In this document: positions 39,302 to 45,761 of the stretch, one piece after another
How the letters are laid out: every line of letters begins with the position of its first letter
Position numbering within the stretch: the first letter of the stretch is position 1
From: a virus
DNA length: 64,000 bases
Direction: 5' to 3' (one strand)
IMG/VR virus record: IMGVR_UViG_3300025000_000061
Coordinates: 1 to 64,000 of that record
Made by a program: the position numbers and the translations under genes
Notes under the pieces: model-generated
Database searches by the model: none
Seen by the model: the letters and a program-made list of their open reading frames with translations, nothing else
Told to the model about the DNA's origin: nothing

Positions 39302-39724
39302 TTGAAAATATTACATAATGCTCAGTGTTATAAGCAAGATAGGGAGTTGGATTGGAGAGGGTGGTGTCCGAAGAGGGGTGAGATTTATTTGTGTCAATTG
39401 GGTAATGAAGGTCTTATATATTCAGAGATTAAGGGGTATCGTCCCGTATTGGTTGTGTCAAATAACATAGCAAACAAACATAGTCCAGTAGTTTCTATTA
39501 TACCATTAACTTCTAGTCAAATAAAAAATAATAATATGCCTGTTCATGTTAAAGTAGGAGTAGAAGAAGGGTTACGAACTTCGAGTTTAATTTGTTGTGA
39601 GCAGACTAAAACCGTATCTAAAAATCGTATGTTCATAAATGGTAGTTTAACTAGAATTTGTAAATTGAGTAGTAAATCGATGTGTAAAGTGGACGAGGCA
39701 ATACGAATACAATTTGGATTGTAA
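39302..39724 (+). CDS. mazF: MazF/PemK-family endoribonuclease
   Basis: PKRGEIY, SEIKGYRPVLVVSNNIANKHSPVVSIIPLTS, HV, S.ICCEQ.KTVSK.R. Confidence 0.92.
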   Translation: MKILHNAQCYKQDRELDWRGWCPKRGEIYLCQLGNEGLIYSEIKGYRPVLVVSNNIANKHSPVVSIIPLTSSQIKNNNMPVHVKVGVEEGLRTSSLICCEQTKTVSKNRMFINGSLTRICKLSSKSMCKVDEAIRIQFGL

Positions 39725-39873
39725 ATAAATTGGGAATAGATTATAAATATAAATTATAATATATATTATCATATATTATAAAAGGGTGTGATGTCTTTGA
39801 TTGTGTAAAAATAAATTAAAAAGTTATTGTGTTTAAATTGTATCTATTAAAAAATAATATAAAAGGAGGATAT

Positions 39874-41412
39874 ATGTTAGTAAAAAATCAAAAAGTTAAA
39901 ATGAATTGGAGTGGAAGTAATAGAAAACATTATGAATTAAAAGGATATCCTTTTACTAATTATAATGATGAATTTGAAGTTAAAATAGAGGATTTAGCAC
40001 CAAAAAGTCAAAAATATGTTTTGATTAGATGTGATTATTGTGGGATACCTTTTTTGAGAAGGTATGTAAATCATAATACAAGAAAAGAGAAATATGGTAT
40101 AAATGATAAAGATTGTTGTGATGATTGTAGAGCATATAAAAGAGAAGAAACATGTTTAGATAAATATGGTGTTAAAAACGCTGCTCAGACAGAAGAAATA
40201 CAAAATAAAATAAAAAGAACAATTAAAGAAAAATATGGAGTAGAATATATTTCTCAATCAGAAGAAATTAAAAACAAAAAGAAACAAACTTGTTTAGATA
40301 AATATGGAGTAGAATATACCTTACAAGTGCCAGAAATTAGAGAAATAATTACAGAAACTAATATAAATAAATATAGATGTGAAAATCCATTTCAAGCAGA
40401 AGAAATTAAAGAAAAAATAAGACAAGTCAATATGGATAAATATGGAGTTGAATATGCTTCCCAATCTTTAGAAGTGAAAGAAAAAACCAAACAAACTAAT
40501 TTAATAAAATATGGGAAAGAATACTACTTACAAACAGATGAATACAAAGAAAAGATTAAACAAAATAACCTAGACAAATACGGAGTAGAATATTATTCAC
40601 AAACAGAAGAATATAAAAACAAATATAAGCAAACCTGTCAAAATAAATATGGTGTTGATAATGTTTCACAAGTTCCAGAAATTGCAGAAAAAATTTCACA
40701 ATCACGTACAAAAGAATTTAAAGATTTGACAAATATAAAATTTAACCATTTAACAGTAATTTCTTTAGTACCTGATAAAACAAATAAGCACCATGATAGG
40801 TATTGGCTATGCGAATGTGATTGTGAAAATAAAACTAGAAAGGAAATTTCAGAAAATCATTTAGTTAGAGGAAATATTAAAAGTTGTGGGTGTATACGAA
40901 AAGAATCATTAATTGAAAGATGGGAAGGTAAAACAAAAAAGGATATATATCCTTATTACAAAGAAATATATTGTACATATGATAGTATGAGAAAAAGATG
41001 TTATAATGAAAAACATGATAATTATAAAAGATATGGTGGTAGAGGAATAATTATTTGTGATGAATGGTTGAATGATTTTATGAATTTTTATAATTGGGCA
41101 ATAAAAAACGATTATAAAGAAGGATTAACTATTGAAAGAATTGATTATGATGGCAATTATGAACCTGATAACTGTAAATGGGCAACATGGGAAGAACAAA
41201 GTTATAATAAATCAAATACGTTATACATAGAAGTAGACAATGAAATGAAAACAGTTAAACAATGGTCTGATGAAACAGGGATACCTCAACATATAATATA
41301 TCAAAGATATGCCAGATATAAAAGAAAAGATAAAAAAGAATTAGAGTTATTAACTAAAGAAAAATTCTTTAAACCAGTTAGACAACTCAAAAGAAAGGGT
41401 GATGTTGTCTGA
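39874..41412 (+). CDS. homing endonuclease-like protein: Zn ribbon, KYG repeats, HNH-type C-terminus
   Basis: About 8 repeats of T.L.KYGVEY..Q.EE.K.K; YWLCECDC, KSCGC, MRKRC, YGGRGI, TIERID..GNYEPDNCKWAT..EQ..N; start moved to 39874 behind AGGAGG. Confidence 0.85.
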   Translation: MLVKNQKVKMNWSGSNRKHYELKGYPFTNYNDEFEVKIEDLAPKSQKYVLIRCDYCGIPFLRRYVNHNTRKEKYGINDKDCCDDCRAYKREETCLDKYGVKNAAQTEEIQNKIKRTIKEKYGVEYISQSEEIKNKKKQTCLDKYGVEYTLQVPEIREIITETNINKYRCENPFQAEEIKEKIRQVNMDKYGVEYASQSLEVKEKTKQTNLIKYGKEYYLQTDEYKEKIKQNNLDKYGVEYYSQTEEYKNKYKQTCQNKYGVDNVSQVPEIAEKISQSRTKEFKDLTNIKFNHLTVISLVPDKTNKHHDRYWLCECDCENKTRKEISENHLVRGNIKSCGCIRKESLIERWEGKTKKDIYPYYKEIYCTYDSMRKRCYNEKHDNYKRYGGRGIIICDEWLNDFMNFYNWAIKNDYKEGLTIERIDYDGNYEPDNCKWATWEEQSYNKSNTLYIEVDNEMKTVKQWSDETGIPQHIIYQRYARYKRKDKKELELLTKEKFFKPVRQLKRKGDVV

Positions 41413-42080: not shown

Positions 42081-42881
42081 GTGGAACAAAATATTATAAA
42101 TGCGATATTGAATTTTTTCACAATTAGTTTGTTCGAGGAGTTAGGTATAGTTTTACTAATTTTAATATTTTTAAAAAGATTTGATTTACTTGATAAATAT
42201 ATGTGGAGATGGAATATAAAATGGATAATTTTGCCTACAATTTTAACGTCATTCTCCATAAATATATTTATATACATAATACCAAATTTTATATTAAAAT
42301 TTTTTGTTTCTATTATTGTTTTATACTTTTCTATAAATTATATCTTAATTAAAACAGACCCATTAGATGAAAAAATAAAATGGTATAAAATATTAATCAG
42401 TATAATATTAAGCATAGTTATGATAACAAGTGCAGAAATAATATATTTACCAATAATGCTTCAATATGTTAATCAACCAATAGAAATATTGAATAATAAT
42501 ATGTTATTAAAATTTATAGTAAGTTTGCCAGCAAAAACATTTCAAGTGTTATTGATTTATTTCATGTATAAAAAACATAATCAAAGTGAAAAATATGTTT
42601 CTAATATTTTAAAAGATAGAATATTATCTTTAGTTACAATTAGTTTTACTGGTTTAATATTGTTTGCTTTAACATGTATAGTAAAAATTGTAATTAGTTC
42701 AGAAATGATTGGTAAATATTCAATACAAACTCAAATGATGATTAGTGTATTAATAACAATTGTACCAACAATACTAATATTTCTTTATATCATACCAATT
42801 AATTACCTATTATCACGATTATTCAGAATACAACAGAGTTATCAACAAATGTATGATGATGTTGATGATACTGATGTATAG
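42081..42881 (+). CDS. multi-pass membrane protein resembling an AgrC sensor domain, lacking the kinase domain
   Basis: About 7 hydrophobic segments, immediately upstream of agrD, no H/N/G boxes. Confidence 0.6.
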   Translation: MEQNIINAILNFFTISLFEELGIVLLILIFLKRFDLLDKYMWRWNIKWIILPTILTSFSINIFIYIIPNFILKFFVSIIVLYFSINYILIKTDPLDEKIKWYKILISIILSIVMITSAEIIYLPIMLQYVNQPIEILNNNMLLKFIVSLPAKTFQVLLIYFMYKKHNQSEKYVSNILKDRILSLVTISFTGLILFALTCIVKIVISSEMIGKYSIQTQMMISVLITIVPTILIFLYIIPINYLLSRLFRIQQSYQQMYDDVDDTDV

Positions 42882-42913
42882 ATACAATGAATTGAAAGGA
42901 GGTGAAATTTATT

Positions 42914-43039
42914 ATGAAAAAATATACTCTTTTAGTCGTAGCTGGTTTTATTGCTTTAGTTGCTACTGCACTTACTAATTCCGTAGCATCTTTCATGGGA
43001 TTGAATCAACCTAAGAGTCCTTCTATGTTAGTAAAGTAA
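42914..43039 (+). CDS. agrD: cyclic lactone autoinducer peptide precursor (41 aa)
   Basis: MKKYTLLVVAGFIALVATALTNSVASFMGLNQPKSPSMLVK; SD AAAGGAGGTG; leader, S-X4 ring, xQPKxP tail. Confidence 0.9.
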   Translation: MKKYTLLVVAGFIALVATALTNSVASFMGLNQPKSPSMLVK

Positions 43040-43055
43040 TATGACTACATAGAAA

Positions 43056-43093
43056 ATTCTAAAGTAGAGTGTTTACTTCCTCTACTTTAGAAT
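43056..43093. terminator. 14-bp perfect stem-loop after agrD
   Basis: ATTCTAAAGTAGAG-N10-CTCTACTTTAGAAT. Confidence 0.75.
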
Positions 43094-43179
43094 AAAAAAA
43101 TAATATAAAAACTATTGTGTTCTATATTAATATATGGTAACATATAGACAAGAATATAATAAATAAGGAGTGGTAAAAA

Positions 43180-44055
43180 ATGATGTTATTTAATAAAAAA
43201 GAAATTCTTAAAAAAGATAATCTTGTGGATGATAAATTTAAAAAAGAGATGGCATTTTTAGTATTTAAAGCAAAAGGTAGACGAAATATTGAACAATTCG
43301 TAAAAGACATGAAAATGTTTGATCCTACACCAATCGTTAATTTAATAAATAAAAATTATAATGAATTACCTGATAGAAAATTATTAAGGAAAATAGCCGA
43401 TAATAGTATGGGAATGGTTAATTTTAGGATATTATATGATCTCTGTGGTTACTCCGAGAGAGATCCTGAAGAAGATCGTAGTTGGATAAAATGGGTTCCA
43501 AGATGGGCAGAAGTTTATATGTGTGATCTAGGCATAGGAGAGGATTGTATTCAAGGAGGGAAAAGAAATGTATTAATAATTCAAAATAATAAAGGCAACC
43601 AACACTCACCGAATGTATCTATATTGCCAATATCCAGTAAATGTAAATTTAACCATATGCATATACTATTAGAAAAAGAATTGGGTTTTGAAAGGGATAG
43701 TTACGCATTGTCAGAAATGCCATTAACTGTAAGTAAGAGGAGGTTCTTTTATAATACAGTACCTTATAAAATTACAACACTTTCAGATTTTAAAATGAAA
43801 GAAATACAGGTATGTCTTGAGAAACAATTTGGATTTTTACCACTTTATTTTGACGTAGAACATGCATTTGAACTAGTCAGACATATAAAAAATCTAGAAC
43901 AAAATATAAAAATCAAAAAATCACATAATTTAGTAGATATTATGGAAGATAAATTAAATGACCTAAAAGAATACTGTTCAAAATACAAAAAGAATTATCA
44001 ACATTACCTACAAGAATACGATAGAATCAATAACTATGGTATTCAAGCAATATAG
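43180..44055 (+). CDS. extended MazF/PemK protein with N-terminal Xre-HTH-like region and C-terminal helical extension
   Basis: KAKGRRNIEQF..P..KLLRKIA..LYDLCGY, then PRWAEVYMCDLG..IQGGKRNVLIIQNNKGNQHSPNVSILPISS. Confidence 0.8.
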   Translation: MMLFNKKEILKKDNLVDDKFKKEMAFLVFKAKGRRNIEQFVKDMKMFDPTPIVNLINKNYNELPDRKLLRKIADNSMGMVNFRILYDLCGYSERDPEEDRSWIKWVPRWAEVYMCDLGIGEDCIQGGKRNVLIIQNNKGNQHSPNVSILPISSKCKFNHMHILLEKELGFERDSYALSEMPLTVSKRRFFYNTVPYKITTLSDFKMKEIQVCLEKQFGFLPLYFDVEHAFELVRHIKNLEQNIKIKKSHNLVDIMEDKLNDLKEYCSKYKKNYQHYLQEYDRINNYGIQAI

Positions 44056-44126: not shown

Positions 44127-44600
44127 ATGATTAACGAACACAAATTAAAGTATCTATGCAACAAATATGGTATTAATTATCAAGTATTTCATGCAACAGA
44201 TACCATATTAATAGATGCAAAATTAGATATATGGGAGGTGAAATATTATGAAGAAATACAAAAAAAATTAAATTTATTATACAATAAACAAAAAGAAATT
44301 CAATTGCAATTATTATCTCCTGTATTAGATGAACCAATTAAGAAAAAATTATTATATGAATATGAAAAAATAAACAAAAAAATAAAAGAAACAAAACCAT
44401 ATTATTTACTTCATAAAAATAAATCTGATAATAAATTTAGCAATCAGCACACACAAGGATGGAAGAAAAATTTATATCAAGTAATAACTTTTATATTAGC
44501 ACATAAAAGAGTTTTATATGGCATCCAATTAGGAAAGCCATATATACATAAGCACAATATTAAAATAAATAAGAAGGGAAAAGTATGTTTAAATACATAA
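44127..44600 (+). CDS. hypothetical protein overlapping the agrB start
   Basis: 157-aa ORF with SD. Confidence 0.7.
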   Translation: MINEHKLKYLCNKYGINYQVFHATDTILIDAKLDIWEVKYYEEIQKKLNLLYNKQKEIQLQLLSPVLDEPIKKKLLYEYEKINKKIKETKPYYLLHKNKSDNKFSNQHTQGWKKNLYQVITFILAHKRVLYGIQLGKPYIHKHNIKINKKGKVCLNT

Positions 44601-45271
44601 GATACCTATTAACATTCCGATATATCAAACTAATATCCTATATATCTGCTAAATATCTTCATAATAAAATACCTGTATTCCCACTAATAGATTCAAAAGT
44701 TTTATTAAAATTTTTACCAAAAAATATGTTAGATTTATTTGAAAATTTACATCAACAATCTAAATTAAAACCATATAAACTTAAATATGTTTATTACTAC
44801 GGTTGTCAAATCATCATAGGAGGCATTAACAAATTCCTACTCTTAATCACACTAGGCATCCTACTCAACATCCTCCCATATCTCATACTAACAACAATAT
44901 CATTCGTATCATTGCGAATTTGGTCTGGAGGGTTACATTTTGACTCTTACTCTAAGTGTGCCTACATTTCACTCTTATCATTTACAATCATGGCACTATT
45001 AGCAAAATACATCTACATATCAACCATACCTACTATATTAATATTCTTAATTGTCTTAATTTTAATTCTATTATATGCACCAGTAGAGCATCCCAACAGA
45101 CCAATAAAAAATAACGAAAAAGTTAAATTTAAATTAATTTCAATTTTCTCATTGTTAATATTACTATTAGTTATTTTATGCGTAAATAATATTATTATCT
45201 GTAATTCTATAGTGTTTGGAGTGCTATTAGCAGGTATAATTATGTTGCCTATTATAAACAAACTGAAATAG
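44585..45271 (+). CDS. agrB: AgrB-family autoinducer-processing peptidase
   Basis: YG.QII, LR..SGGLH....C (catalytic His/Cys), YAPVEHPNRPI, several TM segments. Confidence 0.93.
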   Translation: MFKYIRYLLTFRYIKLISYISAKYLHNKIPVFPLIDSKVLLKFLPKNMLDLFENLHQQSKLKPYKLKYVYYYGCQIIIGGINKFLLLITLGILLNILPYLILTTISFVSLRIWSGGLHFDSYSKCAYISLLSFTIMALLAKYIYISTIPTILIFLIVLILILLYAPVEHPNRPIKNNEKVKFKLISIFSLLILLLVILCVNNIIICNSIVFGVLLAGIIMLPIINKLK

Positions 45272-45732: not shown

Positions 45733-45761
45733 TTGACATAGTATGAAGATACATATATAAT
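45733..45761 (+). promoter_or_regulatory. sigmaA promoter of the yopQ/mrpR-like operon
   Basis: TTGACA-17-TATAAT; degenerate motif AAGATACATATATAA 45746-45760. Confidence 0.8.

Follow-up and report, generated by a model that had tools for sequence, protein, structure and literature searches.

Within the window analysed here, which is the first 64 kb of the 151,782-bp IMG/VR virus record IMGVR_UViG_3300025000_000061, a gene embedded in an agr-type cluster encodes a 291-residue protein (P0001) in which an Xre-like helix-turn-helix (HTH) domain, a MazF core and a helical tail are fused. We confirmed that this three-domain fusion is a real gene that is conserved end to end, and found it to be a fixed component of a lysis-lysogeny control region of the SPbeta type. 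As to its role, our analysis tentatively suggests, with a likelihood that we place a little short of even, that the fusion is a phage-borne MazF RNase acting as effector or regulator of a peptide-controlled lysis-lysogeny switch, much as arbitrium acts on host MazF in phage phi3T.

The original prediction had described a three-part HTH-MazF-helical architecture located inside an agr cluster. Indeed, domain searches and structure prediction agree on this architecture, and the gene lies between an agrD-like gene and agrB. Its open reading frame (ORF) is preceded by a ribosome-binding site (AAGGAG, about 8 nucleotides 5' of the ATG). Full-length homologues with 45-80% identity to the window protein fall into 61 clusters, defined at 90% identity, and an exhaustive HMMER scan revealed more three-part relatives at identities down to about 25%. 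Since the full length of the protein is covered by the 61 clusters, the ORF is neither a chance ORF nor a mis-joined gene call. The AlphaFold2 model of the protein (mean predicted local distance difference test score, pLDDT, of 82) places a five-helix N-terminal domain at residues 18-90, followed by a short linker, a MazF barrel at residues 107-221 and three C-terminal helices at residues 226-290; the arrangement of the domains relative to each other is not confident (predicted template modelling score of 0.51).

The core, which had been predicted at about residues 105-220, was recovered at nearly the same place. The Pfam profile PemK_toxin (PF02452) aligns with residues 111-216 at 54.7 bits (E 1.4e-14), its cut-off being 23.1, and a profile built from 29 homologues found Staphylococcus aureus and Bacillus subtilis MazF among PDB sequences at E-values of about 1e-26. 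Foldseek aligned the model with the RNA-bound B. subtilis MazF structure 4mdx_A (E 3e-10, TM-score by target of 0.90, root-mean-square deviation of 1.8 Å over 119 columns). Its profile matches, fold and active site therefore assign the core to the MazF/PemK family and to phrog_1936. Its identity to B. subtilis and S. aureus MazF is 32-37%, and a loop of the SEQGG type is kept. Residue conservation was counted in an alignment of 29 relatives of the 291-residue protein. R129 is invariant (29/29), position 152 is Ser in 23 sequences and Thr in 6, and Q125, E179 and R187 are invariant as well. R129 and S152 are the equivalents of Arg25 and Thr48, the catalytic residues of B. subtilis and Bacillus cereus MazF (PMC7354611), and Ser is tolerated at the latter position in MazF7 of Mycobacterium tuberculosis (PMC7354611). 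Because the catalytic Arg and Ser/Thr are kept throughout, the fusion looks like a catalytically competent MazF-family endoribonuclease. The replacement of the usual RP by RN that had been noted in this core is correct, yet specific to a clade: RN (K128-R129-N130) is present in 7 of the 29 relatives, which form the closest clade, and RP in the other 22.

The helical tail reported behind the core is likewise real and conserved. Its helices are predicted at residues 226-246, 249-268 and 273-290, and Y265-C266 is invariant within the motif L-x-x-Y-C-x-K-Y-x-K-N-Y in an alignment (A3) of three-part and two-part proteins. A search of PDB sequences with a tail profile gave nothing credible, and there was no match to phi3T_93 or to any antitoxin. 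The profile of phrog_1936, annotated as 'MazF-like growth inhibitor', matches residues 111-279 of the fusion over profile positions 13-179 of 188 (E 1.1e-15). Core plus tail without an HTH domain is a common architecture of about 190 residues in the same HMMER scan. Since the phrog_1936 profile spans core and tail, the window protein is to be viewed as a phrog_1936-type MazF to which an Xre domain has been added. Proteins that appeared to consist of the tail alone (P0079 and similar) were considered as separate antitoxin genes and rejected, as locus L006 shows a deletion hybrid and not a natural split. In that locus (L006:2453-3210) the C-terminal 87 residues of the fusion stand in another frame behind a MazF of the type encoded at 39302 in the window, and a tail-only ORF of 69 residues is left. 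This hybrid probably arose by recombination between two MazF paralogues.

The N-terminal domain is an Xre/Cro-C1-type HTH by its predicted fold, as the earlier reading of the sequence had supposed. Folded alone it reached a pLDDT above 90 in its core (model m4fa00407c730), and nearly all of the top 50 rows of an exhaustive VIA-align structural search were HTH proteins of the Xre family. The best structural match was 2ofy (Z 8.9, root-mean-square deviation of 2.3, 75 residues), followed by CapH-NTD, C.AhdI, SinR and ImmR with Z values of 7.2-7.6, and by the antitoxins HigA and HipB with Z values of about 6. Pfam HTH_3, HTH_26 and HTH_19 did not match the window protein; among 37 relatives, HTH_3 was found in 1 (E 0.0076) and HTH_26 in 2, all of them weak matches. 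A profile of the domain showed no specific similarity to SPbeta YopO (hhalign probability 0.2), and a protein-atlas look-up was uninformative. Between this domain and the core lies a linker of acidic charge that hardly varies among the relatives; its consensus is G-Y-S-E-x-D-P-E-E-D-R-S-W and includes DPEEDRSW. It has the highest conservation within the N-terminal part, and Y91, D95, E97, E98 and W102 are invariant in the 29 sequences. An acidic linker with an invariant Trp recalls the C-terminal segments of MazE.

The placement of the fusion in the genome is also conserved. Loci with a three-part gene were examined in the window, L003/4, L005, L009-L012, L015-L018, L025/26 and L027-L033, the flanks being read from 4 IMG/VR contigs (42-167 kb), 7 more metagenome contigs and several ENA, JGI and NCBI contigs. 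All three-part relatives with readable flanks, at identities of 25-80%, adjoin a gene for AgrB and/or precede genes for orf157-family, DndB/YopQ-like and MrpR-like proteins, and no copy outside agr or phage control loci was found among them. The original prediction had named an N-terminus other than an HTH, or a wide occurrence of the fusion outside such loci, as grounds for rejection, and neither was seen. A pattern-limited scan of 185,579 species-representative genomes gave a sole relative, a two-part protein on a Clostridium tagluense contig (strain A121 carries the related element L013), and this too is encoded upstream of YopQ-like and MrpR-like genes.

In L007, L013, L022 and L023/24, the loci with an HTH-less MazF+tail protein that were examined, this protein occupies the position of the fusion and stands beside a cassette that is not of the agr type. 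The alternative cassette begins with a gene for a TPR or TPR-like protein of 164-204 residues without HTH domain, the start of which often overlaps the stop of the MazF gene; a TPR profile match above the cut-off was obtained only in L023 and was absent in L007. An ORF of 40-56 codons with a signal peptide follows the TPR-like gene in L007, L022 and L023/24, and none was recognised in L013. One of these pro-peptide ORFs contains a repeated KDPPDPN. In L023/24 the pro-peptide is followed by orf157-family, DndB/YopQ-like and MrpR-like genes. The TPR protein and the secreted peptide may constitute an undescribed RRNPP-like phage communication cassette with a receptor that is devoid of a DNA-binding domain. 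As MazF+tail is found at the same place beside both types of cassette, MazF+tail is constant and the communication cassette is exchangeable. The constant set thus consists of MazF+tail, the orf157-family protein, the YopQ-like protein and the YopR-like protein, and either an Agr-type or a TPR-plus-pro-peptide cassette is swapped in. An HTH domain is present on MazF exactly where the cassette is of the Agr type, with about 10 agr-type lineages having it and 4 TPR-type lineages lacking it; these lineages are related, and the count carries no statistical test.

A comparison of domain-wise identities to the window placed a recombination breakpoint at the conserved linker, between a block comprising the N-terminal domain and a block comprising the core. 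The identity of the N-terminal domain tracks that of the upstream block encoding a DUF5317 protein, a membrane protein and AgrD (rho 0.81 against the membrane protein, n=11), whereas those of core and tail show no such relation. In L030, the membrane protein and AgrD are both 89% identical to those of the window, the N-terminal domain 71% and the core 44%. The relation is reversed in L009 and L028, where the corresponding values are 33-34% for the membrane protein, 48-50% for AgrD, 51% for the N-terminal domain and 85% for the core. The HTH domain and the upstream membrane-protein/AgrD cassette are thus inherited together, which fits with a 'specificity cassette' that includes the HTH domain. 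One locus has undergone a loss in this block. L005:2731-2904 contains a chimeric ORF of 57 codons in which the N-terminus of the DUF5317 protein is joined to the AgrD C-terminal sequence EPKVPSMLK. It marks a deletion in which the membrane protein and most of agrD disappeared, while the fusion and AgrB were kept.

The coordinates of the features discussed are collected in the Table. The gene order in the window is MazF (39302), a gene for an HNH homing endonuclease, DUF5317, the 266-residue membrane protein, the 45-residue AgrD-like peptide, a hairpin, the fusion, orf157, AgrB, small ORFs, and the genes for the proteins of 457 and 354 residues. The virus record has about 25% G+C, and nearly every gene is on the + strand. 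A 9.3-kb region gave no megablast match against GenBank phages. The phages of this group are SPbeta-like and low in GC, and probably clostridial.

Table. Features of the fusion, its gene and its surroundings. Positions refer to the window unless a locus is named.
Feature	Position	Strand	Basis or remark
Stand-alone MazF, 140 aa, accessory paralogue	39302..39724	+	PF02452, E 2.8e-24
HNH homing endonuclease (phrog_374; DUF7487 repeats)	39829-41412		between stand-alone MazF and DUF5317
Multi-pass membrane protein, 266 aa, candidate peptide receptor	42081..42881	+	conserved tail, no kinase domain
AgrD-like pro-peptide gene, predicted ring S-F-M-G-L then NQPKSP	42902..43039	+	weak TIGR04223 match, orthologues
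Strong hairpin just 3' of agrD	43056..43093	+	stems in 6 loci, fold z
Promoter-like site of the fusion: TTGTGT, 17 nt, TG-g-TAACAT (extended -10)	43115..43143	+	8 aligned loci
HTH-MazF-tail gene (P0001, 291 aa)	43180..44055	+	ORF with ribosome-binding site, full-length homologues, AlphaFold2 model
Xre/Cro-C1-type HTH domain by predicted fold, residues 18-90, five helices	43231..43449	+	domain model, VIA-align
Acidic linker, residues 91-106	43450..43497	+	invariant residues, net acidic charge
MazF/PemK endoribonuclease core, residues 107-221	43498..43842	+	Pfam PF02452, PDB profile, Foldseek
Three-helix tail, residues 222-291	43843..44052	+	AlphaFold2 helices, alignment A3, phrog_1936 profile
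orf157-family protein	44127..44600	+	alignment A4; stop overlaps agrB start
AgrB, AgrD-processing membrane peptidase	44585..45271	+	PF04647, E 7.4e-37, 126.9 bits
YopQ/SroE-like (DndB-like) protein, 457 aa	45810..47183	+	BLASTP against SPbeta YopQ, E 3e-25
YopR/MrpR-like master-repressor homologue, integrase fold, 354 aa	47187..48251	+	Pfam MrpR_N_CB, BLASTP
TPR-like gene + pro-peptide ORF cassettes	L023:6621-7390, L022:2197-2996, L007:1327-2168		directly 3' of MazF+tail, 5' of YopQ/MrpR-like

The membrane protein had no Pfam or PHROG match and an uninformative protein-atlas look-up, and its homologues are all of about 265 residues, with no kinase-bearing form among them. Its last 12 residues make up an acidic tail with an aromatic residue in the window, L003 and L009-L012, with variants such as M-Y-D-D-V-D-D-T-D-V, M-F-E-D-F-D-D-D and M-F-D-D-D-Y-I-D. 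The AgrD-like peptide scored 14.3 bits against TIGR04223, below the cut-off of 19. In at least 7 loci its orthologues are built alike: the leader is hydrophobic, the five-residue S/C-x4 ring varies, and [NHS]QPxxP is conserved. No match to an AgrC-type ATPase (HATPase_c_5) or a LytTR regulator was found in the record, which CheckV estimates to be 82% complete.

The orf157 family had no Pfam or PHROG match, and Y14, H96, H108, Q110 and H126 are invariant in it (alignment A4). With a hidden Markov model built from A4, a member was detected in agr-type loci, where it follows the MazF gene, and in the TPR-type loci L023/L024 (E 1e-11), where it precedes the YopQ-like gene. The copies in the window and in L009/L011 contain a coiled-coil-like insertion of about 45 residues. 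When two fusion chains and the orf157 protein were modelled as a complex, the ipSAE was 0.00, which counts neither for nor against an interaction.

The YopQ-like protein had tblastn matches confined to phages of the SPbeta group and related Bacillales phages, and its orthologues carry PF14072 (DndB). A perfect consensus promoter for sigma-A (TTGACA, 17 nucleotides, TATAAT) is present at 45733-45761, about 50 nucleotides upstream of its gene. The YopR-like protein matches MrpR_N_CB (E 5.9e-14, 52.9 bits) and SPbeta YopR (BLASTP E 3e-19 over 309 residues), and the order of yopQ-like followed by yopR-like is identical to that in SPbeta. A reading of Pfam 'MrpR' as a multimer-resolution recombinase, and of the region as one for plasmid maintenance, was rejected, because MrpR is the SPbeta master repressor YopR (PMC10516654).

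Between the agrD-like gene and the fusion, a hairpin with stems of 14-17 bp was found in 6 of 6 loci (fold z of -5.5 in the window). The stem sequences differ between loci while the pairing stays, so that the changes are compensatory. Its function as a terminator is uncertain, since an A-run and not a U-run comes next. Downstream of it, the TTG and T..TGGTA columns of the promoter-like site are invariant in the 8 aligned loci. Because the hairpin and this conserved site lie in between, the fusion, orf157 and agrB are probably transcribed as a unit of their own, separate from the unit of the membrane protein and agrD. An inverted repeat at the fusion promoter (43113-43127/43142-43156) was considered as an operator and set aside, as it is not conserved in other loci.

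Between the agrD stop and the hairpin lies the block ACUACAUAG (43045-43053), which is invariant in 5 of 6 loci (window, L003, L009, L010 and L011), and the neighbouring hairpin stems vary. The block includes UACAU, the word cut by MazF of Bacillus and Staphylococcus, and ACUACAUAG could be a processing site. We also examined the use of this word in the whole record by maximal-order Markov analysis of 5- to 7-mers. On the coding strand UACAU occurs 293 times, slightly more often than the 245 expected, and shows no avoidance, with the caveat that the word was taken from other MazFs and that the fusion's own cleavage word may differ. None of the other strand-specific words of the ACA type was depleted on the coding strand, where only restriction-type palindromes were. 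GATATC, AACGTT, TACGTA and GAACT/AGTTC are strongly depleted on the + strand of the whole record, which resembles restriction-site avoidance. The agrB gene contains 6 UACAU against 1.4 expected, which is at best suggestive (P 0.004, uncorrected for 14 genes). The fusion gene has none against 1.8 expected and the MrpR-like gene none against 2.2, neither of which is significant.

The window encodes a second MazF, which is 34-37% identical to the fusion core. The original prediction held that this canonical MazF lacks an upstream antitoxin ORF and that neither MazF has an evident MazE, and both statements stand. The 173-bp AT-rich gap 5' of the stand-alone gene is free of ORFs, as is the gap upstream of the fusion, and neither MazE_antitoxin (PF04014) nor RHH_1 (PF01402) had a match in the whole 151.8-kb record. 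The locus is therefore not a canonical mazEF, as there is no antitoxin gene. The stand-alone MazF is present in L003, L004, L010, L029 and L033. It is absent from L005, L011 and L012, which all keep the fusion, so that the fusion is independent of it. The suggestions that the fusion is a heterodimer partner of MazF or a MazE sponge found no support. The HNH homing endonuclease downstream of the stand-alone gene is present, shortened or absent across related loci. Tandem MazF pairs in a single chain of about 250 residues, that is single-chain pseudo-dimers, were seen in P0089, P0099, P0100, P0106, P0147, P0159, P0190 and P0210, and P0126 (471 residues) has four MazF-like stretches.

We propose the effector role stated at the outset because the region resembles that of phi3T, with a peptide gene, a stem-loop, effector genes, yopQ and yopR, but carries its own MazF. 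The layout in SPbeta is the same, running aimR, aimP, stem-loop and yopM to yopR. The signal would be a cyclic peptide of the Agr type, for which AgrD and AgrB would be responsible; the kinase-less membrane protein may be its sensor, and the RNase activity of the fusion would be coupled to this signal. The HTH domain probably binds a promoter, either in autoregulation or to control agr genes in the absence of AgrA, and it may control the transcription of the fusion-orf157-agrB unit. In cis, the acidic linker may keep the RNase in check, and the tail would be a family-specific docking or regulatory element. The activity of the fusion would then tilt the outcome of the decision that lies with the two YopQ/YopR-like repressors. 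The view in the original prediction that the fusion may be a self-regulated or DNA-binding effector is compatible with the Xre fold and the intact catalytic residues.

Several points weigh against this proposal. RNase activity, DNA binding, the link to the peptide and an effect on lysogeny are all inferred, and a temperate lifestyle is presumed. The MazF used by phi3T is host-encoded and regulated by small MazE mimics, and no such mimic was recognised here. The membrane protein has no demonstrable similarity to AgrC, and the HTH domain is seen at moderate fold Z values (6-9) and faintly by sequence profiles. Around the fusion promoter, no operator-like palindrome was conserved among the loci compared. 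The co-inheritance of the HTH domain with the receptor and AgrD could be plain linkage of adjacent DNA; the numbers are also small and the loci related. Lastly, L005 lost the receptor and AgrD and kept the fusion, which can therefore be maintained when the phage has no signal of its own.

The proposed role can be extended to an Agr-type counterpart of arbitrium, an extension that we regard as rather doubtful. An AgrB-made Ser-lactone peptide would act on the kinase-less receptor, which would contact HTH-MazF directly, for example via its acidic and aromatic C-terminal tail. RNA cleavage and/or DNA binding by HTH-MazF would then set the YopQ/YopR-type switch. MazF+tail would be an output indifferent to the kind of signal, and in sister phages it would be wired to the HTH-less TPR receptor and a linear secreted peptide.

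Alternatively, the fusion could be a single-chain type II toxin-antitoxin, in which the Xre domain and the acidic linker form a cis antitoxin for prophage or plasmid addiction, superinfection exclusion or abortive infection, and not for the choice between lysis and lysogeny. The Xre part would autoregulate and block the RNA groove of MazF until it is proteolysed or displaced. We consider this unlikely. It draws support from the Xre fold, which is common to the HigA and HipB antitoxins, from the acidity, the invariant Trp and the conservation of the linker, which exceeds that of the rest of the N-terminal part, and from the absence of a separate MazE or RHH gene from the record. L005 also differs from all other loci in having a MazE_antitoxin gene (2040-2189), about 850 bp upstream of the fusion. 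However, the HTH domain follows the agr-type cassette and not the absence of an antitoxin, since the two-part relatives lack both HTH and MazE. A similar motif, D-W-x-x-W, is also kept near the N-terminus of two proteins without an HTH domain, the two-part one of L008 and the stand-alone MazF encoded at 39302, and may thus be a mere subfamily trait. Moreover, none of the PADLOC defence models matched the fusion, the second MazF, orf157, the membrane protein or the YopQ-like protein, and a fixed place by repressor genes would be unexpected for a free-standing addiction module.

It is quite improbable, in our view, that the fusion is a non-cleaving transcription factor, with MazF+tail serving as a scaffold for dimerisation or for binding a ligand or partner in an Xre regulator of the agr or repressor operons. 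Such a function would be in keeping with the HTH fold, with the promoter-like site directly 5' of the gene and with the lack of AgrA in the record, which calls for some other regulator of the agr genes; moreover, MazF of Myxococcus xanthus is a case of a MazF that was drawn into a regulatory pathway with a transcription factor (PMC2701414). Against this, the catalytic Arg, the Ser/Thr and several residues of the RNA groove are kept over deep divergence, so that catalysis is probably retained, and HTH-less relatives occupy the same genomic position. Least probable of all is an early nuclease for host takeover that degrades host mRNA, with the HTH domain and tail as accessories and the proximity to agr as incidental: the match to phrog_1936, which is annotated as moron/host takeover, the solitary MazF-like genes in many phages and the intact catalytic residues would suit it, but neither UACAU nor ACA-type words are avoided in a strand-specific manner, and a position that is kept at 25-80% identity and beside two cassette types is hardly incidental.

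MazF toxins, phage-borne agr genes and the link between arbitrium and MazF are already known separately. A search of the literature, including full texts, yielded no paper linking MazF with phage agr genes, and no description was found of an HTH-MazF-tail protein or of a phage MazF fixed beside peptide-signalling and SPbeta-type repressor genes. If true, our proposal would extend the role of MazF in lysis-lysogeny decisions from one Bacillus phage that uses the host MazF to a phage family with its own MazF, and Agr-type and TPR/peptide-type cassettes would be exchangeable inputs to one effector. It would also provide a testable case of Agr signalling without kinase or AgrA, and a natural MazF controlled by something other than MazE.

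Among known systems, the closest analogues in function are the arbitrium-MazF circuit of phi3T, the agr genes of phage phiCDHM1 and the MrpC-controlled solitary MazF of M. xanthus. The Clostridioides difficile phage phiCDHM1 reportedly has homologues of agrB and agrD but not the whole AgrCA pathway, and the phage studied here is similar in this respect. phiCDHM1 is said to have an agrC homologue and no MazF fusion, whereas here no kinase or AgrA match was obtained and the HTH-MazF gene lies between agrD and agrB. With B. subtilis MazF/EndoA and S. aureus MazF the fusion shares the fold, the core identity, the catalytic Arg and Thr/Ser and the SEQGG-type loop. Unlike these, it has an Xre HTH domain, a helical tail of 70 residues and no adjacent mazE, and it is phage-borne and embedded in a signalling and repressor region. 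The phrog_1936 proteins of about 190 residues resemble its core and tail, including the Y-C motif of the tail, and share its position upstream of YopQ/YopR-like genes. However, they lack the HTH domain, and in the loci examined they are paired with a TPR protein and a linear pro-peptide instead of AgrD and AgrB.

Surveys of MazF list AbrB, RHH and XF1863 partners, with no HTH fusion among them (PMC2701414). The solitary MazF-mx of M. xanthus has no cognate MazE, acts in a developmental decision and is controlled by the transcription factor MrpC (PMC2701414). The fusion likewise lacks a cognate MazE; unlike MazF-mx, it is phage-borne and has its DNA-binding domain fused to it, whereas MrpC is separate and encoded elsewhere. 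In phi3T, arbitrium sets the choice of lysis or lysogeny by way of host MazF, which AimX and YosL bind and thereby inactivate and which phi3T_93 releases from MazE; active MazF favours lysogeny (PMC10769878). The likeness to this circuit is one of position and logic only, and no AimR-like gene was noticed in the module, although no test was aimed at AimR. Both have a peptide cassette immediately 5' of the sro/yopM-R repressor operon and a stem-loop behind the peptide gene. The MazF RNase is the node that tips lysis versus lysogeny in phi3T, and by analogy may be so here. The difference is that the MazF studied here is encoded by the phage itself and fused to an HTH domain, and that the signal would be an Agr-type cyclic peptide processed by AgrB.

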